Source: Enterobacteria phage ATK47. Taken from it: a stretch of 64,000 bases of DNA. The stretch lies in the sequence record NC_055708.1, one strand, 5' to 3'. The translations under genes were made by a program, and so were the position numbers. This document shows, in pieces, positions 4,336 to 13,924 of this stretch (positions are counted from its first letter, which is position 1; the number at the start of each line of letters is the position of its first letter). Below the pieces are notes generated by a model. The model did no database searches, was not told where the DNA came from, and saw only the letters and a program-made list of their open reading frames with translations.

Positions 4336-4800
4336 ATGAAATCATACGCTGAATTTTTGACTGAACAATCTAGTTCAGATGTAAAAGCCGCTGCGATTGC
4401 AGCAATTCAAGCAGGTAAATATTCTTACAAAGACGCCTCTGATGAAGAACGTTTCCGTTTTATTAGAGATTTTAAAGCCGAAGGTTTTACTAATGCTAAT
4501 ACTGTTAGCCGAGTTTTTAAAAGCCTAGCTGCATCAGGTGAATTGTTCCAGAAAGCTACAGGTAAAGCACCTGCGCCAAAAACAGACCCTAAAGCAGCTC
4601 AAGAAAAAAATATCGCCAAAGGAATTATTTCTAAGTATGAAGCAATTCTTAAAGAGCTTTTAGTAATCAAAACAGAAGGCCAGAAACTGGCACGAGCACA
4701 TAGCTTCAAAGATAATCCTCACGCTCATAGCCTTGAGTATGTTGAAGATATCCAAAAACTTATTAAAGACCGTATCTGGTCTGCTAAACAAATTAAATAA
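4336..4800 (+). CDS. internal-protein-like (MKSYAEFLTE N-terminus)
   Basis: CTS-like N-terminus; SD AGGAAAAG. Confidence 0.55.
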   Translation: MKSYAEFLTEQSSSDVKAAAIAAIQAGKYSYKDASDEERFRFIRDFKAEGFTNANTVSRVFKSLAASGELFQKATGKAPAPKTDPKAAQEKNIAKGIISKYEAILKELLVIKTEGQKLARAHSFKDNPHAHSLEYVEDIQKLIKDRIWSAKQIK

Positions 4801-5783: not shown

Positions 5784-6377
5784 ATGAACACACTGAAGAA
5801 ACTTGTTGAATTCATCCGCACTAAACTGGGTACTGCTATGGCTAAAAATCTGACTGTCGAAGAACAGTATAACGCAGCTGCAGATAAGTTGATTACCCAA
5901 ATCAAAGAACTAAAAACGGCTTCTGTTAAATCTATTAATGAAGAAAAACGTATTCGCGAACTTGTTAATGAAAAGAACAAGCAAGCCGCTTCTAAGGAAC
6001 GTGAAATTCGTAAGCTCCTGGCTGAAGGACAAGATGTTACCATGCATGCTAAGCTTGGTCTTCTGTATCGTCGAACTGCCGAACAACTTAATACAAAAGC
6101 TGACGGGTATGCCGCTATGCGAATTGAAATTGCTCGTAAGGTGGTTGAACTTGATGATGCTCGTCAGAACCTGGCAATCAAACTCGAATACATTCGTGAA
6201 ACTCGAGCAGCCAATGCCCTTGGTATCTCTACGGCTGATGATGTAATTGAAATCGCTGCACTGACTAAGGTTGATATCGAAGACACTCTGACTCGTGTTG
6301 AAACGTTCAATGGCACTCCAGCTGGTGTCGAAACCACTTCTGCTGATGTACAAGAATATATTAACTCTTTGAAATAA
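5784..6377 (+). CDS. coiled-coil protein of unknown function
   Basis: 197 aa, heptad-rich, SD AAAGGTAA. Confidence 0.5.
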
Positions 6378-6385
6378 AATAATAC

Positions 6386-6408
6386 GGAGGACTCCGGTCC
6401 TCCTTTTG
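6386..6408 (+). terminator. rho-independent terminator (ggaggac tccg gtcctcc TTTT)
   Basis: perfect 7 bp stem and T-run. Confidence 0.6.
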
Positions 6409-6426
6409 GATAATAAAGGAGTTAAC

Positions 6427-7029
6427 ATGCGAAACCAAAATAATGATATTGACTCAATGTTCGAAGAGTTCCGAGATAAGGTAAATCCACCTACGTCCTT
6501 AGTTGATTCATTACGATATGTTGCAACCGGACGTAAATGGTACTGGTCGTCTTCTTATGAGACCACCGAGAAAACGGCTAGCCATAGCAGAAAATCTTTA
6601 TTAGCCCCAGGTATTATGATTCATGATATCGGAGCTATTGCTAAACTAGTTGCAGACCATGATATTAGATTCACTGATTTCGTTGCTCCTACGTGGTCTG
6701 TTTGTTGTTTAAACACTGAATGGGAATATATCAGCGAACGCTCTGAAGATTATTATGGTTTTAGAGATAAGCTTCTGAGGTCTAATATGTTTTATATCGA
6801 TACAGAAGTTCTAGTCGATAATAAAAAATATTACTTTACGTTAATCATCGATTCTGAAACTATGTATGAAGGCAAGCCTTTGCTTAAAAGAGTTGATGCT
6901 TTAAGTGCTATTGATGCGCTTTATGAAACTATGGTTGTTAGTCCTAATTTCACTAACAATTTAATCCTTGAGCAATTTATTATGGAATGTAGAGAATATG
7001 TCAAAGCCAACCCTATACATGCCAAGTAA
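6427..7029 (+). CDS. hypothetical protein with FIMECR motif
   Basis: 200 aa ORF, SD AAAGGAG. Confidence 0.5.
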   Translation: MRNQNNDIDSMFEEFRDKVNPPTSLVDSLRYVATGRKWYWSSSYETTEKTASHSRKSLLAPGIMIHDIGAIAKLVADHDIRFTDFVAPTWSVCCLNTEWEYISERSEDYYGFRDKLLRSNMFYIDTEVLVDNKKYYFTLIIDSETMYEGKPLLKRVDALSAIDALYETMVVSPNFTNNLILEQFIMECREYVKANPIHAK

Positions 7030-7393
7030 GCCCTGGGCGTATGAATACAAGCGTAAATTAATCCCAAATGAAGTACTATTTGGCCCTATTTTAGCTTTAG
7101 CATTTTTAATCTTTATGATTATAGGAGCTGTTTTAGATTCTAGTGAAGTTATATCGTCTGATGCAGCATTTTCATTAATGTTCGTCGCACCACTTATTGT
7201 ACCGTTTTTATTAATGCCTATTAATTGGGCGGGATATTGGCACCAAGGCCGTCATCACAGAGCCCGATTAAGAGAATGGAAAGTTCAGTGCGCAAAAGCC
7301 CAAGCTCAGTATGATGAAGCTGTTAAAAAGTATGAATATGAAGAAGCTATGGAATTCGTTAAGGAAATAAGATGCAAAAGCCTCAACTCTTAA
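7019..7393 (+). CDS. membrane protein, variant C-terminal motif (EFVKEIRC)
   Basis: hydrophobic segments; start uncertain (6998 or 7019). Confidence 0.4.
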   Translation: MPSKPWAYEYKRKLIPNEVLFGPILALAFLIFMIIGAVLDSSEVISSDAAFSLMFVAPLIVPFLLMPINWAGYWHQGRHHRARLREWKVQCAKAQAQYDEAVKKYEYEEAMEFVKEIRCKSLNS

Positions 7394-7731
7394 CCGTATG
7401 GCCTTCTCTTGGTGAGAACATTCTAATTTTTATTATGAGTATTGGCATGGGATTTGCCTTTGGATTAGTTGGATTTCTTATTGACGGCGTTGTGTTAGGA
7501 TTTATAGGGAACACTGGTGGATTCACAGACCAATGGCAGGACTTACGGTATACCCAAGCCTTTGCATCCATCGCATCATTTTGTACTGTAGTCTATTTTT
7601 ACTACGATTTTATAAACCACAACAAGAAAAATAAAAAGGTTTACGCTTCTCAAATGATTAGTTATAATGAACTCCTAGCTAGACGTGAAAATGAAACAAT
7701 CGAAAACTTTATTAAGGAATGTAGAAAATGA
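7372..7731 (+). CDS. membrane protein, C-terminal NFIKECR motif family
   Basis: two TM segments; C-terminus IENFIKECRK. Confidence 0.45.
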   Translation: MQKPQLLTVWPSLGENILIFIMSIGMGFAFGLVGFLIDGVVLGFIGNTGGFTDQWQDLRYTQAFASIASFCTVVYFYYDFINHNKKNKKVYASQMISYNELLARRENETIENFIKECRK

Positions 7732-8033
7732 GTAAGATTATTGAAATTAAAGTACCAGAGTTTAATGATGCCAAATCCGCTTCAGATGCAATTTATAAAC
7801 TTCTGAATCAAGCTGAACGTATCGAAGAAGAAGCAACAAAGATCGCAGACCAATATGCCGTATCATTTTCTGTAGGTGATTATGGTAGTGGTCGTACTTA
7901 TTATCCTAAGGGTGAAATCGTATCCCAGTGGATGAAAGATGAAATTGAAAATAATGGCGGCGATGTTAAGCGTGAAGGTAATGGATACGTTATTACTGAA
8001 GGTGCTTGGGTTTCGTCTTCTGCGTTGTGCTAA
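7728..8033 (+). CDS. small protein, C-terminal GAWVSSSALC (paralog 1 of 3)
   Basis: tandem paralogs share C-terminal motif. Confidence 0.5.
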   Translation: MSKIIEIKVPEFNDAKSASDAIYKLLNQAERIEEEATKIADQYAVSFSVGDYGSGRTYYPKGEIVSQWMKDEIENNGGDVKREGNGYVITEGAWVSSSALC

Positions 8034-8042
8034 GGAATCATT

Positions 8043-8315
8043 ATGTCTAAAGAACAAACCGAACTGGCTGAAGCTGTAGCAAAAATCTATGCAGCTATTG
8101 AGGCTGCCAAAGAAATTGCTGATAAACAAAACACAACATTCGACTTGTATCCAGCTTATGGTATGGGTGGAACCTATCATTCACCAGGACATCTTAAAGC
8201 CGATCTTGAACGTTGTACAAAAAACGGTTATGCCGAATGGGCTGACGTTTACCAATACGACTACAACCTGAGCCTCGAAACTGGTGGTTGGGTCGCATCT
8301 TCTCACACTTGCTAA
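8043..8315 (+). CDS. small protein, C-terminal GGWVASSHTC (paralog 2 of 3)
   Basis: SD AAGGAA; shared motif. Confidence 0.5.
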   Translation: MSKEQTELAEAVAKIYAAIEAAKEIADKQNTTFDLYPAYGMGGTYHSPGHLKADLERCTKNGYAEWADVYQYDYNLSLETGGWVASSHTC

Positions 8316-8324
8316 GGAAACAAT

Positions 8325-8522
8325 ATGTCTCGTGAATTAGATTGTGCTGTACGTACGGCAGTAGCTGCTCTGGAAAACCTGTTCCAAATTGCAACAGAAG
8401 AACGCGAAGAAGTTACATTATGGATTGAAGATAACGCAGGTCTGAATCTCCAGGACGCGATCTCATTATCCCACAATAGTATCACTGTTCAAGGCTGGGT
8501 ATCATCTAGTTATTCTTGCTAA
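8325..8522 (+). CDS. small protein, C-terminal QGWVSSSYSC (paralog 3 of 3)
   Basis: SD AAGGAAA; shared motif. Confidence 0.5.
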   Translation: MSRELDCAVRTAVAALENLFQIATEEREEVTLWIEDNAGLNLQDAISLSHNSITVQGWVSSSYSC

Positions 8523-8526
8523 AACA

Positions 8527-8566
8527 GTTTACAACAAGATAGGGCTATGTTATAGTAGTCCTATCA
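8527..8566 (+). promoter_or_regulatory. early promoter with -10 inside palindrome
   Basis: GTTTACA, TATAGT, inverted repeat atagggcta/tagtcctat. Confidence 0.5.
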
Positions 8567-8584
8567 AAACAAATGGAGTCCACA

Positions 8585-8824
8585 ATGATTTATTACGAAA
8601 GTATCGGAACCAAAGTGGTTGGTAAAACCATTACTCGTGAAAAGTTTGCAAAGATATTCGATATGCGTTATAAAAAATCTGAACACAAAGGCATCCGATT
8701 CGAAGATGCGCACTGTACAATTTGCCCTTATAATGAAGACATAAACGGTACAATCGTTCCATTGGTAGAGGCTTCACATGATGACCTCTGGGATGAATAT
8801 AATATCGCATGTCGTGAAATTTAA
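8585..8824 (+). CDS. hypothetical protein
   Basis: SD GGAG 6 nt before ATG at 8585. Confidence 0.45.
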   Translation: MIYYESIGTKVVGKTITREKFAKIFDMRYKKSEHKGIRFEDAHCTICPYNEDINGTIVPLVEASHDDLWDEYNIACREI

Positions 8825-8852
8825 GTTAATGAATTAATCCGAGGAAAATATT

Positions 8853-9809
8853 ATGATGTTAGTTATTGGTTCTCGTGCACTTCACTATCACGGTCTTATT
8901 GATTCTAGCGCTATTAAAAATAGTGATTGGGACTTTATTGCGGACCAAGGTTCTTGGAATGTATTCAAAAATCAAATGATGGGTGTATATGTTCACCAAG
9001 ATAACCCTGATGTCCAAGTTTTCAAATGCTTCCATAACGGACGCGAAACTCATTTTGAAGCATACATCGTTCCGGCTATCACTAACGTTCGCGAACTAGT
9101 CGGTGAACTCACTCCTGAAGATTTCACGTCTTCTTATGACCTTTTAAAATACGCCAAGAAAAATTTGACTAAAGACCGTTTGAACGGGTTTTACTGGGCA
9201 ACTCCTGAGATATGTCTTGCAATTAAGATGTCTCATCGTTTCAAGAAAAATAATCCATTCTTTTTAAAGACTATGAACCATATTCAGTATCTTCGTGGTA
9301 AAGGTGTTACACTGAACGATGAACTTACTGAAATTATGCTGAAACGCCAGAAAGAAACCTTGAATTATGCTCACCCAGTTCTTGACACTTCTAAAAGTGC
9401 GTTCTTTAAAGATGACATCTATACATATGACCATGATACTATTCATGAAGCCATTGCACTAACAGACCGTCCAGCGTATACATTTTATATGAAAGATGGT
9501 TCTGAAGTCATGACCTCACGCGAGAAGTTCGAATCATTACCAGAAATGGTCAAATTGGCCGGCGTATACGAAGAATCATGTGTACTAGCGTTAGAACGTT
9601 CTCAGATTCCTAATAACTTTGAAATCCATCCACGTGATAGTTTTATGATGGCCCTTGAAAAGGTCTGCACATCAATCACATCAGGATGGTTCCGTGAGTT
9701 CGCTTGGGAAAATTATAGCAAAGTAGTAAGTATGTACCAAAGCTTAGGACACGACGATTACGTCAAGCGTTTCAAACAAAACTTTCATATGGTAAAACCT
9801 TTCAAATAA
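8853..9809 (+). CDS. hypothetical protein (318 aa)
   Basis: long ORF with SD GAGGAAAA. Confidence 0.55.
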   Translation: MMLVIGSRALHYHGLIDSSAIKNSDWDFIADQGSWNVFKNQMMGVYVHQDNPDVQVFKCFHNGRETHFEAYIVPAITNVRELVGELTPEDFTSSYDLLKYAKKNLTKDRLNGFYWATPEICLAIKMSHRFKKNNPFFLKTMNHIQYLRGKGVTLNDELTEIMLKRQKETLNYAHPVLDTSKSAFFKDDIYTYDHDTIHEAIALTDRPAYTFYMKDGSEVMTSREKFESLPEMVKLAGVYEESCVLALERSQIPNNFEIHPRDSFMMALEKVCTSITSGWFREFAWENYSKVVSMYQSLGHDDYVKRFKQNFHMVKPFK

Positions 9810-9821
9810 TTTCACAAAACA

Positions 9822-9860
9822 GTTTACAAGGTCTGTAGTTGTTGATACTATAGACCTATC
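9822..9860 (+). promoter_or_regulatory. early promoter with palindrome aggtct/agacct
   Basis: GTTTACA, TACTAT. Confidence 0.5.
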
Positions 9861-9889
9861 AAAACAAATGAGTGAATGGAGATATAAAA

Positions 9890-10090
9890 ATGACTACTTT
9901 GAATAAACGTTTCGGTAAAGCTAAACCTGGTTGTGCAGCAGAACGTCGTTATGTTTTCGCTCAGTTAGAAGATGTAGAGTATCAGATTAATCAAGTTCAC
10001 ATTACTGGTATCGAGCCTATGTGTGGCCTTGAAGCTCTTCGTGAAGTTCGTGATGGGTATCGTCGTGACATCGAAGAAATGTCAAAATAA
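9890..10090 (+). CDS. hypothetical protein
   Basis: 66 aa ORF from ATG at 9890. Confidence 0.45.
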   Translation: MTTLNKRFGKAKPGCAAERRYVFAQLEDVEYQINQVHITGIEPMCGLEALREVRDGYRRDIEEMSK

Positions 10091-10130
10091 GTGTACAAAC
10101 TGATAGGACTATGTTATAGTAGTCCTATTA
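10091..10130 (+). promoter_or_regulatory. early promoter with palindrome ataggacta/tagtcctat
   Basis: GTGTACA, TATAGT, 9 bp inverted repeat. Confidence 0.5.
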
Positions 10131-10148
10131 AAACATGAGGAGAATATT

Positions 10149-10454
10149 ATGAAATTAGGCGAAACCAACCGAATTGGTCTTTTAACAATATTTGTATCAC
10201 TTTTTTACGCAGCTCTTTCTGTTGCAGTATTACAAAAGGCTTACAGTATGGATGGTGTTCCTGGTTTTGTATTCTTATCGCCGTTTTTGCTATTCGTTGG
10301 AGCATTGTTATTATATGCCACGACTAGTTTCGACCATAACGTCTGGGTCAATTATAAATGTAAATTGTCTGAAGAAGAACACGCAGAAGCTCGTAAAAAA
10401 GCTATTGAATCTACCAATCTAGAAAATTTCATTAAAGAATGTCGAGGAAAATAA
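10149..10454 (+). CDS. membrane protein, C-terminal NFIKECR motif family
   Basis: two TM segments; C-terminus LENFIKECRGK. Confidence 0.5.
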   Translation: MKLGETNRIGLLTIFVSLFYAALSVAVLQKAYSMDGVPGFVFLSPFLLFVGALLLYATTSFDHNVWVNYKCKLSEEEHAEARKKAIESTNLENFIKECRGK

Positions 10455-10455
10455 T

Positions 10456-11142
10456 ATGAATAGTTCTAAAGTGTTTAATAGTCAAGCTCGTGCAGTAGGT
10501 GGTTTTGCTCATGCGATTAAAAATGACCAGATTAAAAACGAGCCTATGTTCTTTAATTGCGATTTGAATTTTGCTTTTGATAACGGCGGTCCAATTACTC
10601 GTAGCTTTATCCAAAATCTCCCTGACGATTGGAAAGACTCGGATGTAGTATTTGATTCACGAGTCCATATGCTGATGCCTGGTTGGTATCCTGCTATTCC
10701 TGGTTATCACCATGATGACGTACCACGCCCGGATATTCCGGTTGGTCAACATTTTATTACTGCAGGACAACCTGACTATGACAATCCTCGCTATTTGTCT
10801 GAACATATTCTTGGTCTTGTTAACGCTGATGTGTGTCCTACTCATTTTGCAACAGGAACTGCAGAGTTCAGTCAGATTCCTGATGGCGAACTTATCTATC
10901 GCCAGTGTCACAAAGAAGTCCTCGAAAAAATTGAAAAAGGTGAACTAGAGAAATGGGAAGCTCCAGATCGTACTCTTCTTCAGTTTGATTGGCAAACATG
11001 GCACACTGGTTCTCGTGCAATTAGTAATGGATGGCGTTGGTTCGGACGTGTATCTCGTAATACAGACCGAGTTAAAAAGATTACCAATGAAATTCGTGTC
11101 AATGCTCAAGTTTATCTGGAATTCCCTATGGAAGGCTGGTAA
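10456..11142 (+). CDS. hypothetical protein (228 aa)
   Basis: ORF with SD GAGGAAAA. Confidence 0.5.
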   Translation: MNSSKVFNSQARAVGGFAHAIKNDQIKNEPMFFNCDLNFAFDNGGPITRSFIQNLPDDWKDSDVVFDSRVHMLMPGWYPAIPGYHHDDVPRPDIPVGQHFITAGQPDYDNPRYLSEHILGLVNADVCPTHFATGTAEFSQIPDGELIYRQCHKEVLEKIEKGELEKWEAPDRTLLQFDWQTWHTGSRAISNGWRWFGRVSRNTDRVKKITNEIRVNAQVYLEFPMEGW

Positions 11143-11633
11143 TGATTAACAAAACATATTGGTCTAATATAGACGATGGCAACGAAGGTATTTCGTACTA
11201 TTCAGTGGATTGGACAGGATGTCCATCCTACTTAGTGAAACGTATTTGCCAAGAATTTAAAATCGACCAGCCAGCAGGTATTATCGTGAACAGATACATT
11301 AATGGATATCAACCTATCGATGAAGTAATACGAACAACTCAAGCTGAGCTTGAAAAGTTTTTCAATAAGTGCCAATGGATAACAGGATGGATTATATTTG
11401 TACCGTCGGTATGGTTTTTCAGTACTAAGGTGAGTTCTTTCGGATTTGTTGATATTATTGCTATCTTATTAGCATCTAGTATCGTAAGTGTTGTTGGTGG
11501 CATCATTGGCGGCGGTACCGCCGCCATCATTATTAATCTTATTAAAAGTAGTTTACAAGAACATAAAGACAAGATAAAAGCCAAGAATAATGAAGTTGAA
11601 CGTTTTATTACCGAATGCAGGAATTTGAGATGA
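11142..11633 (+). CDS. membrane protein, C-terminal RFITECR motif family
   Basis: hydrophobic C-terminal half; motif VERFITECRNLR. Confidence 0.5.
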   Translation: MINKTYWSNIDDGNEGISYYSVDWTGCPSYLVKRICQEFKIDQPAGIIVNRYINGYQPIDEVIRTTQAELEKFFNKCQWITGWIIFVPSVWFFSTKVSSFGFVDIIAILLASSIVSVVGGIIGGGTAAIIINLIKSSLQEHKDKIKAKNNEVERFITECRNLR

Positions 11634-11866
11634 GTATAGCAATTTACATTAAATCAGAATCATGTGATAGTTATCTGTACACATATGATAAAGATGTGTC
11701 AGAAGAAAAAATCAAAGACGACCTTAATACGGACCTTGATATGTTCTGTCCTATTGCAGATTACAAACTTGCGGTCTCTAATAGTGAAAGTCCATCTAAA
11801 GAAACGCGCATTGAAGAATTTATGTCTGAATTAATGGCCAAATCATGGGACCGAGATGATGAGTAA
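11630..11866 (+). CDS. hypothetical acidic protein
   Basis: ORF from ATG at 11630 overlapping upstream stop. Confidence 0.4.
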   Translation: MSIAIYIKSESCDSYLYTYDKDVSEEKIKDDLNTDLDMFCPIADYKLAVSNSESPSKETRIEEFMSELMAKSWDRDDE

Positions 11867-12314
11867 GAAAAATAAAGTGAAAGAGCTATCAGCCGGTATT
11901 ATTTTCCTTACCGAAGATAAAGAGTTATTCATGGGGCGTGTAACTGGTTCTCGTCCTAAAGGTGCATTAACTCATCGGTGGGATATTCCTAAAGGCCGTG
12001 TCGAACCTGGCGAATCTCCTATTGAAGCCGCTATTCGTGAATGCGAAGAAGAAACTGGGTTTACACAATATGACCCTGCCTTCCTGAAAGACCTAGGTGA
12101 ACATCATTACTCAGACAATAAGAATATTCATCTGTTCCTATATACCATCCCTGTAGAGCACGAGCAATTCAGAAACAGTGTTTGTAATTCCTATCATACA
12201 TTCCAAGACGGACGACAGATTCCTGAATTTGATGCATTCGCTTTAATTAAACCTTCTCAATGGGAATATGTAATGGGCAAATCGTTATATAAGGTGCTCA
12301 CTACCCTCCTATAA
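11856..12314 (+). CDS. nudE: Nudix hydrolase (NudE, e.1-like)
   Basis: Nudix box GRVEPGESPIEAAIRECEEETG; sits directly upstream of e as in T4. Confidence 0.75.
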   Translation: MMSKKNKVKELSAGIIFLTEDKELFMGRVTGSRPKGALTHRWDIPKGRVEPGESPIEAAIRECEEETGFTQYDPAFLKDLGEHHYSDNKNIHLFLYTIPVEHEQFRNSVCNSYHTFQDGRQIPEFDAFALIKPSQWEYVMGKSLYKVLTTLL

Positions 12315-12315
12315 G

Positions 12316-12347
12316 TAATAAATACCTCCTATAAACGTGGGAGGTAT
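12316..12347 (+). promoter_or_regulatory. late-promoter-like AATAAATA plus hairpin sequestering the lysozyme SD
   Basis: tacctcc/ggaggta stem occludes GGAGG; matches the known T4 e regulatory layout. Confidence 0.4.
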
Positions 12348-12348
12348 T

Positions 12349-12837
12349 ATGAATATATTTGAAATGCTTCGTAATGACGAAGGTCTTAGACTGACTTTAT
12401 ACAAAGACACTGAAGGCTTTTGGACGATTGGCATAGGCCATTTAGTAACAAAGAACCCGTCTTTAGCCGTAGCTAAAGCTGAACTTGACAGAATGATCGG
12501 CCGTAAATGCAACGGTACAATTACCCTTGATGAGGCTGAAAAGCTATTTAATGAAGACGTTGATAAAGCTGTCCGCGGAATCTTGGGTAATGCTAAACTT
12601 AAACCGGTATATGATTCTTTAGATGCAGTTCGTCGGTGTGCATTGGTCAATATGGTCTTCCAAATGGGTGTAGCAGGAGTCGCCGGTTTTACTAATTCTC
12701 TTCGTATGCTTAAACAGAAACGTTGGGATGAAGCGGCAGTAAATCTAGCTCAATCTAAATGGTATCGTCAGACACCTAATCGCGCGAAACGCGTAATCTC
12801 AACATTTAAAACAGGAACTTGGAAAGCGTATATATGA
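12349..12837 (+). CDS. e: endolysin (T4 lysozyme e)
   Basis: [48 protein letters not shown]; near-identical to remembered T4 lysozyme. Confidence 0.9.
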
Positions 12838-13115
12838 AAACATATAGTGAATTTTTATCAGAATCTATTCTTAACGAAGCTACTGACACATTTGCAACTA
12901 AGCTAGGTGCAGCTTTGGTTGAAGCTGAAAGTCTATTAGCACGTATTTCTGAACTTGCTAGTAAGATAGATACTCGCAAATTTGAACGTACCAGCGATAT
13001 CGCTAAGCTTGAAGCCTTGTTGCGTATGTGCGATAAACCAGAAGAAATCGCTAAGAACGGCTCGCTGATGAAACAACGTCTTGAAAAATATATTTCAGGC
13101 GCTTCAGAAAAATAG
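12834..13115 (+). CDS. internal-protein-like ([11 protein letters not shown]-terminus)
   Basis: CTS-like N-terminus; at T4 ipIII/ipII position. Confidence 0.55.
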
Positions 13116-13594: not shown

Positions 13595-13924
13595 ATGAAA
13601 ACATATCAAGAGTTTATCACTGAAGTTACATTATCTGCGGAACAGAAAGCTGCTATCGAAGAAAGTAAAAATCCCAAAGTAACATATAAAGTAAATAGTA
13701 AAGGCGTTTTTGATGGCTTGGTTCAAGACCCTGAATTGAAAAAAGCTCTTTCTAAAACTAATGCGTACTTTGCTCCTAAATTTAACACAGCCGGTGTACT
13801 TATTGGATTGGATGTATTCAACTCTAAAGGTGTTCTATCTAATGCCTTTGGCTATGCCGCTAACAAAATTACCAAAGCCGCATGGGAATCCAATACCAAA
13901 CAAGCTCAAAAGCCTAGAGTATAA
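13595..13924 (+). CDS. internal-protein-like (MKTYQEFITE N-terminus)
   Basis: exact CTS-like start; SD AAGGAAAAA. Confidence 0.6.
   Translation: MKTYQEFITEVTLSAEQKAAIEESKNPKVTYKVNSKGVFDGLVQDPELKKALSKTNAYFAPKFNTAGVLIGLDVFNSKGVLSNAFGYAANKITKAAWESNTKQAQKPRV

Follow-up and report, generated by a model that had tools for sequence, protein, structure and literature searches.

Why should a run of phage proteins with otherwise unrelated sequences end in nearly the same short peptide? The question is raised by a 64,000-nucleotide stretch of Enterobacteria phage ATK47 (NC_055708.1; hereafter the window), in which five + strand genes between positions 6427 and 11633, located 50 bp to 5.3 kb downstream of a homologue of the T4 gene e.6, had been described from the sequence as encoding a family of small proteins that share an (N/R)FI(K/T)ECR motif. 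All five tail sequences noted in that preliminary description were found, on the + strand and where it had placed them. Directly before their stop codons, the products read ...LILEQFIMECREYVKANPIHAK (6427-7029, 200 amino acids), ...EEAMEFVKEIRCKSLNS (7019-7393, or 6998-7393 with an earlier start), ...ETIENFIKECRK (7372-7731, 119 amino acids), ...TNLENFIKECRGK (10149-10454, 101 amino acids) and ...NEVERFITECRNLR (11142-11633, 163 amino acids). Our analysis indicates that the shared element is a short C-terminal module, that it belongs with the gene block following e.6, and that it may serve as a common docking helix for the e.6 product, which resembles the phage shock protein PspA.

Second-order Markov simulations (300 in all) predict 0.023 copies of FI.ECR for the six-frame translation of the window, with never more than one copy in a simulation; the actual translation contains four. 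Across the 169,729-bp genome of Enterobacteria phage ATK48 (KT184310.1), a Mosigvirus related to RB69 that is 100% identical to the window from 6000 to 12400, the strict form F[IV]xxCR is present among open reading frames (ORFs) of at least 40 amino acids only in the 6427, 7372, 10149 and 11142 genes, each time no more than 11 residues from the stop. When a position-specific scoring matrix (PSSM) built on 59 non-redundant tails was scored against 50,319 proteome windows, these four tails received 27.6-33.1 bits, with the 7372 tail (e.3, see below) ranked first at 33.1 bits and the 10149 tail at 31.5 bits; the next best of the 50,319 reached 10.8 bits. The simulations, the whole-genome ORF scan and the PSSM together rule out a chance origin, including the possibility entertained in the preliminary description that such a motif is common by chance in AT-rich phage proteomes.

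A core of [F/Y/W]-[I/V/L]-x-x-C-[R/K] no more than 35 residues from the C-terminus is found in the same four products, with 11, 1, 2 and 3 residues remaining to the end in 6427, 7372, 10149 and 11142, respectively. The residues before F (L-E-Q, I-E-N, L-E-N and V-E-R, in the same order) agree at positions -3 and -2 with the wider consensus given below. FIMECREY in the 6427 product, said earlier to lie about 13 residues before the end, is followed by 9 residues, or 11 counted from the R. The genes concerned, named by comparison with T4 and from the annotation of relatives, are arranged as follows.

e.6 homologue, 5784..6377, + strand: 197 amino acids; upstream of the 6427-11633 interval; proposed partner of the motif
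e.5 homologue, 6427..7029, + strand: 200 amino acids, soluble; FIMECR at 6976-6993
e.4 homologue, 6998..7393, + strand: 131 amino acids from 6998, annotated start 7019; predicted inner-membrane protein with two transmembrane helices
e.3 homologue, 7372..7731, + strand: 119 amino acids; predicted membrane protein with two transmembrane helices; FIKECR at 7708-7725
RB69-type insert, about 7728-11142: contains the 10149-10454 gene
RB69-type 101-amino-acid protein, 10149..10454, + strand: predicted membrane protein with two transmembrane helices; FIKECR at 10428-10445
Long e.2, 11142..11633, + strand: 163 amino acids; soluble N-terminal domain, transmembrane hairpin and predicted cytoplasmic tail; FITECR at 11604-11621
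After long e.2: nudE, the lysozyme gene e, and denV

For the products of e.3, 10149 and 11142, and likewise for e.4, the membrane nature proposed earlier agrees with hydropathy, its sole support; the 6427 product, which had been grouped with these small membrane proteins, is the 200-amino-acid homologue of T4 e.5 and has no convincing transmembrane helix. The long e.2 ORF carries no annotation in KT184310.1, and relatives annotate its homologue as a membrane protein. It also contains an internal echo of the motif, LEKFFNKCQ, at residues 70-78 (11349-11375), just ahead of its first transmembrane helix.

Each window protein is a clear member of one PHROG family: e.5 of phrog_2607 (E=1.5e-95), e.4 of phrog_2604, e.3 of phrog_2330, the 10149 protein of phrog_9798, and long e.2 of phrog_2203 (E=1.1e-54). 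Four of these families are labelled as of function unknown and phrog_2203 is labelled just 'membrane protein'; they are kept separate, apart from a weak second match of the 10149 protein to phrog_2203 (E=1.2e-4). No domain is reported over the shared C-terminal module in Pfam, PHROGs or NCBIfam, and no window protein bearing the motif (hereafter, carrier) has a significant match in Pfam or NCBIfam. A database protein 97% identical to the 6427 product (P0116) has a precomputed PF26876.1 assignment, which a Pfam scan of the window protein itself did not return.

Over all loci we gathered 146 unique carriers, whose tails follow the consensus Φ(-3)-[E/N/D](-2)-x-[F/W or Y](0)-[I/V](+1)-x-x-C(+4)-[R/K](+5). 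Among 123 unique tails, position -3 is L, F, I, V or M in 114 and position -2 is E, N or D in 93; both positions lay outside the search pattern, so that conservation there was not forced. After removal of the last ~18 or more residues, BLAST divided the carriers into 29 clusters, 11 of them soluble (72-326 amino acids) and 18 with one to three predicted transmembrane helices. Profile comparison with hhalign joined the e.5-position clusters alone (C0 with C3 at a probability of 84%, E=8e-6), and the BLASTP likeness of the 10149 protein to the e.3 and 11142 proteins is restricted to the tail.

An ordinary paralogue family, related over whole proteins, was rejected on the same tail-less BLAST and hhalign comparisons. 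When e.5-position proteins from 16 genera are aligned, only four columns are invariant, F184, C188 and R189 among them. Searched exhaustively against 1.84 billion cluster representatives, the e.5 profile recovered 26 e.5-family clusters only, and every retrieved representative (21/21) has F-[IV]-x-x-C-[RK] close to its C-terminus; the motif is the most conserved part of this fast-evolving family. From the tail-less clustering and the e.5 profile results, therefore, the shared element is a short C-terminal module on unrelated scaffolds, and 'family of small proteins' is a misleading name for some 29 clusters whose common part is that module.

The e.4 homologue is a weak member of the group. Its tail contains FVKEIR at 7355-7372 and a Cys at 7373-7375, so that I takes the Cys position and the Cys stands two residues further on; it lacks the core (FVKEIR-C), and A-M-E before the F departs from the -3/-2 pattern. 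The EFVKEIRC variant reported earlier for the 7019 gene is thus present, and at 1.8 bits (rank 31 of 50,319) it is not separable by itself from the best chance matches. The place of e.4 in the motif group rests on position and architecture, with predicted transmembrane helices at 26-44 and 57-75, an acidic loop and a basic tail. Its start is probably at 6998, where the product would begin MSKPTLY, as T4 e.4 begins MSKPSLY; T4 e.4 ends ...MKFVKESRCKSQS, with the variant form of the motif ..KFVKESRCKSQS.

Extending the search to other T4-like phages, as the preliminary description had suggested, recovered the motif also in IME08, Q7622, Mineola, fHe-Yen9-01, Aeromonas phage 65 and Cronobacter leB. 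In T4 itself, e.3 ends ...MKEFVIDCRKIK, holding KEFVIDCRKIK, and e.5 ends ...LLEKFVKECREYVKAITIPSK, holding EKFVKECREYV. T4 e.2 (102 amino acids), whose N-terminus matches the long e.2 of the window, is truncated past the transmembrane region and lacks the motif. In other Tequatrovirus contigs, e.2 is 162 amino acids long and ends NNFITECRKLK. The e.3 homologue was matched by tblastn in 713 phage records, and a word-index protein search, insensitive here, gave three near-identical proteins only. Our literature searches on T4 e.2-e.6 returned a note on PspA for e.6 and the expression classes only, with no mention of the motif and no interaction data, and by this measure the shared motif appears to be new. 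A distant clade of T4-like phages frequently has Y at position 0 and up to seven carriers in tandem after e.6 (locus L102, 6694-9542). Some membrane carriers of that clade have Lys in place of Cys and end SYINSKRGQL, NYIETKRK or DYIESKRGHN (L101 9415-9690, L102, and L103 8982-9511).

Two sets of loci connect the motif with e.6. Among 44 IMG/VR loci retrieved via e.6, 41 have the motif in the first ORF downstream of e.6; in the remaining three that gene is split, and the ORF after it bears the motif. Over these loci the motif is present in 136 of the 630 ORFs downstream of e.6 versus none of the 600 upstream. A second, independent collection of 44 loci, centred on nudE, contains e.6 together with the motif in 36, neither in 5, e.6 with only a Cys-less variant in 1 (ending DYIESKRGHN), and the motif with no e.6 inside 10 kb in 2. 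The pairing recurs in Mosigvirus, Tequatrovirus, Dhakavirus, Kanagawavirus, Jiaodavirus, Tegunavirus, Ishigurovirus and Pseudotevenvirus, and the most divergent e.6 homologues (29-31% identity, in an RB43-like context) adjoin a 328-amino-acid protein that ends ..LEKYIDECKTRV.. or ..LEQFINECKERV... A pattern search with [ENQ]xFI[KTE]ECR[KGN] gave 51 IMG/VR matches, 19 of them in e.6 loci, and is uninformative on contexts other than e.6. With the exceptions of Enterobacter phage CC31 and an RB69-like contig (L066), both discussed below, the motif module is restricted to the block of genes that directly follows e.6.

The e.6 product of the window is 88% identical to T4 e.6, a gene found in more than 1,100 phage records. 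Profile searches and a predicted structure suggest that it resembles the helical PspA/IM30/Vipp1-like proteins of the ESCRT-III superfamily. An eight-sequence e.6 profile compared with PDB sequences gave Vipp1/sll0617 as the top four matches, collinear over 3-140 / 3-142 (E=0.0055); with a wider profile of 42 sequences the Vipp1 match falls to E=0.27. PF04012 (PspA_IM30) is the commonest Pfam match among the 42 homologues (12/42, best E=7e-5), and one e.6 homologue bears the JGI name 'phage shock protein A'. An AlphaFold2 (AF2) model built from the 42-sequence alignment (predicted local distance difference test, pLDDT, 75) has helices at 2-18, 25-80, 86-145, 151-161 and 186-196, and this modelled fold has the layout of PspA: an N-terminal amphipathic helix, a long alpha1/alpha2-3 hairpin and shorter C-terminal helices. 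Foldseek against the PDB returned Vipp1 (7o3w, 7o3x, 8qbr, 9eom, 6zvr) and archaeal CdvB2 as the best matches to the model, with probabilities up to 1.0, E-values of only 5.6e-3 and template modelling scores (TM-scores) of 0.45-0.52. The PspA-like nature of e.6 is already known, since a genome announcement reports a 99.9% HHpred match of an e.6 homologue to E. coli PspA 4WHE (PMC7862958); it is in print, though obscure. Many GenBank records label e.6 'host specificity protein', apparently a misannotation passed from record to record.

By hydropathy, the membrane carriers share a predicted topology. The loop between the transmembrane helices is short (median 9 residues) and acidic and the tail after them is basic, so the tail, and the motif with it, is predicted by the positive-inside rule to lie in the cytoplasm. 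The spacing between the last transmembrane helix and the F of the motif is almost constant, with 35 residues as the median (quartiles 30.5-38). For shuffled sequences the mean helical hydrophobic moment is 0.76, compared with 0.99 for the real ones. The motif appears to be the core of a short C-terminal amphipathic helix. A sorting tag, one of two functions proposed earlier, is unlikely because the motif is found on soluble as well as membrane proteins and because, on the latter, it stands at the end of a basic, predicted cytoplasmic tail about 35 residues past the last transmembrane helix.

The other proposed function, an interaction motif, is the one we favour on synteny, topology and analogy; binding to e.6 itself, and any effect on the membrane, we infer from these. 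Specifically, we suggest, as a tentative reading that is plausible without being compelling, that the tail is a common docking helix for e.6. Carriers would then be of two kinds, the soluble e.5 family encoded right after e.6 and a varying set of small proteins with two transmembrane helices (e.3, long e.2, the 10149 protein and perhaps e.4). The membrane carriers would provide tethers or nucleation points for e.6 on the inner membrane, and soluble e.5 would compete for, or regulate, the e.6 docking site. T4 e.2-e.6 are real, co-expressed proteins, all transcribed early and all detected at the protein level (PMC9697503 supplements).

A more specific form of docking, which we consider rather improbable, would have the F-I-x-x-C-R helix mimic the C-terminal helix of e.6, such that any tail-bearing protein could plug into or cap an e.6 polymer, with a fast-changing set of membrane anchors and the soluble regulator e.5 setting where and when the membrane-remodelling coat assembles in the infected cell. 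The C-terminus of e.6 (6343-6374; ..V-Q-E-Y-I-N-S-L-K before the stop) has the same -3/0/+1/+4/+5 register as the motif, including YINS as in one distant carrier. On the PSSM it ranks 76 of 50,319, or 51 without the Cys column, which is suggestive, not significant.

Several results weigh against docking on e.6. The window e.6 gives no PspA match in Pfam even at E<=1, and so falls short of the curated threshold; the carriers have no match at E<=1 to the PspC, PspB or LiaI families in Pfam or NCBIfam, and at most work like these proteins, of whose families they are not members. The absence of Cys from e.6 rules out a disulfide with the invariant Cys of the motif, so that docking does not account for this residue. 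For e.5, the AF2 model is poor (pLDDT 54); it places the motif in a helix (177-194) at pLDDT ~55.

The synteny could stem from shared regulation or local duplication and not from contact. CC31 and the RB69-like contig keep intact motif genes with no e.6 within 10 kb. In CC31 (locus L085, 55296-75727, reversed), which is not among the 31 records with an e.6 at least 95% identical to the Karamvirus type, a tRNA cluster abuts the first of three intact motif genes; compared with its relative PG7, CC31 is without a ~7-kb segment, from the tRNA cluster to the first motif gene, that includes e.6 and e.5. In the RB69-like contig, homology to the window starts at 10085; e.6 to e.3 are gone and the 10149-type gene and long e.2 are kept. 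From these two cases, therefore, carriers are not lost at once after the loss of e.6.

Four other explanations were weighed against docking on e.6. The module could be a self-association element, forming homo- or hetero-oligomeric bundles with the Cys in the core or bound to metal, in a membrane complex independent of e.6. The presence of several carriers together in most phages (2-5 per locus, seven in tandem in L102) speaks for this, as do the hydrophobic register of -3, 0, +1 and +4, which with the elevated moment (0.99 against 0.76) suits a packing helix, and the retention of carriers in CC31 and L066 despite deletion of e.6. However, the e.5-position protein is the sole carrier in loci of the Pseudotevenvirus type and in some of the Aeromonas type, and because such loci exist hetero-oligomerisation is not the general function. 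Self-association also leaves unexplained why the carrier block starts right after e.6 and why the universal carrier is the gene adjacent to e.6, and we judge it unlikely, though not far-fetched.

It is improbable, in our estimate, that the helix docks on a conserved gamma-proteobacterial host protein (for example PspA, PspF, FtsH or another inner-membrane machine) and that e.6 is merely a co-regulated neighbour. A host target would fit the persistence of the CC31 carriers without e.6, the conservation of the motif in phages of Escherichia, Klebsiella, Enterobacter, Yersinia, Aeromonas and Cronobacter, and the early expression of the carriers, a class of genes that usually acts on the host. None of our searches produced a candidate host target, however, and a host partner does not predict the tight adjacency to e.6 across divergent arrangements, such as the RB43-like loci beside nrdD.

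The motif could also be the last trace of common descent by local duplication, a terminal helix needed structurally by each protein with no shared partner. The genes are in tandem on one strand and of similar size, many of the membrane carriers consist of the same transmembrane hairpin and tail, and the hyperplastic regions of T4-like phages evolve through duplication and shuffling. Yet the module is also found on soluble proteins of 72-328 amino acids with wholly different N-terminal parts, and a residual helix would not be expected to preserve an invariant Cys-Arg and a fixed terminal position from one subfamily to another while the rest became unalignable. Descent without a shared partner therefore seems quite improbable to us.

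At the nucleotide level, the codons of the motif vary within the window (TTT/TTC, TGT/TGC and AGA/CGA/AGG). In 109 distinct 27-nucleotide motif windows, Cys is encoded by TGT in 55 and TGC in 54, Phe by TTT in 68 and TTC in 36, and Arg by all six of its codons. The earlier observation that the nucleotides differ at synonymous positions, with conservation at the peptide level, thus extends well beyond the window, and the use of all synonymous codons for Cys, Phe and Arg points to selection on the peptide. A constraint on DNA or RNA, in which the motif codons overlap the ribosome-binding site or start of the next gene and translational coupling is selected, is extremely improbable and, as a main cause, effectively refuted. 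In the window, the Shine-Dalgarno sequence serving the following gene does lie within or just past the motif codons: the K-E codons contain AAGGA in e.4 and e.3, the R-G codons GAGGA in 10149, and the R-N codons AGGA in 11142. The codon for the +5 Arg, moreover, is AGA or AGG in 46 of 99 distinct motifs versus ~15% genome-wide. But the register of the Shine-Dalgarno sequence is not constant between genes, F, C and R take all synonymous codons, e.5-type proteins have 4-30 extra residues between motif and stop, and AAGGA would be encoded by +2/+3, precisely the variable positions. Coupling explains at most the AGA/AGG bias of the Arg codon.

As a side observation, the motif Arg codon is dual-coding to a small degree, in that it also contributes to the Shine-Dalgarno sequence serving the following gene (6976-6993, 7708-7725, 10428-10445 and 11604-11621). 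A second C-terminal Cys motif is present in the same region, in that three tandem paralogues at 7728-8033 (phrog_899), 8043-8315 and 8325-8522 end in W-[V/I]-[S/A]-S-S-x-x-C directly before the stop (GAWVSSSALC, GGWVASSHTC and QGWVSSSYSC, respectively). The same ending occurs in the corresponding gene block of IME08, Q7622 and fHe-Yen9-01.

T4 is among the best-studied viruses, and yet its e.2-e.6 genes are without assigned function. The handle described here is common to long e.2, e.3, e.5 and probably e.4 and follows e.6 across a broad range of the Straboviridae that bear it, and five orphan T4 genes thereby become one candidate system. If the handle binds e.6, the phage would encode a membrane system of the Psp/ESCRT-III kind with exchangeable adaptors. 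Such a system could bear on how the phage maintains energisation of the host inner membrane, for example during lysis inhibition, and the tail would offer a short, portable tag for bringing proteins to a PspA-type scaffold. If the partner is other than e.6, the motif is still a clean route to that partner.

Among known systems, the closest in arrangement is that of PspA with PspB and PspC in E. coli and Yersinia, where PspC binds PspA through its cytoplasmic C-terminal domain and PspA alternates between soluble PspF and its membrane partners (PMC5596341). In both cases a PspA-family gene lies beside genes for small inner-membrane proteins, and in the phage the genes after e.6 encode one soluble protein and several membrane proteins with predicted cytoplasmic tails. 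The phage proteins, putative partners of e.6, differ in having no sequence similarity to PspB, PspC or PspF, and in comprising many interchangeable carriers with one invariant Cys-Arg motif; they are also phage-encoded and expressed early. In Bacillus subtilis, LiaI is a small membrane anchor for the PspA homologue LiaH, encoded beside it. Unlike the phage locus, that pair has one dedicated anchor, and is not known to have a peptide motif shared across unrelated proteins or a soluble carrier.

PspA, Vipp1 and probably e.6 are members of the ESCRT-III superfamily, in which the MIM motifs are short C-terminal helical docking peptides of ESCRT-III subunits that bind the MIT domains of Vps4-type ATPases. 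The likeness lies in a short helical handle at the C-terminus. MIM motifs, however, are on the ESCRT-III subunit itself, whereas the phage motif is on putative partners, and the C-terminus of e.6 resembles the motif weakly.

A further comparison is with the capsid targeting sequence of T4 (MKTYQEFIAE), which is N-terminal, is carried by late internal proteins of the virion and is cut off by the gp21 protease. It is likewise a short peptide on unrelated proteins of the same hyperplastic region, with an E-F-I-x-E core, but it lacks the Cys-Arg, and the phage motif is C-terminal and on early, often membrane proteins. Identity with the capsid targeting sequence was rejected, the likeness being limited to E-F-I-x-E and the motif being C-terminal in all carriers. 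Three window genes, at 4336-4800 (MKSYAEFLTE), 12834-13115 and 13595-13924 (MKTYQEFITE), do have starts like the capsid targeting sequence and probably encode internal head proteins; their E-F-[IL]-x-E core resembles the C-terminal motif superficially. Set beside these systems, the locus suggests an arrangement that is new here, a phage-encoded protein of the PspA family whose neighbouring putative partners are marked by one shared peptide.

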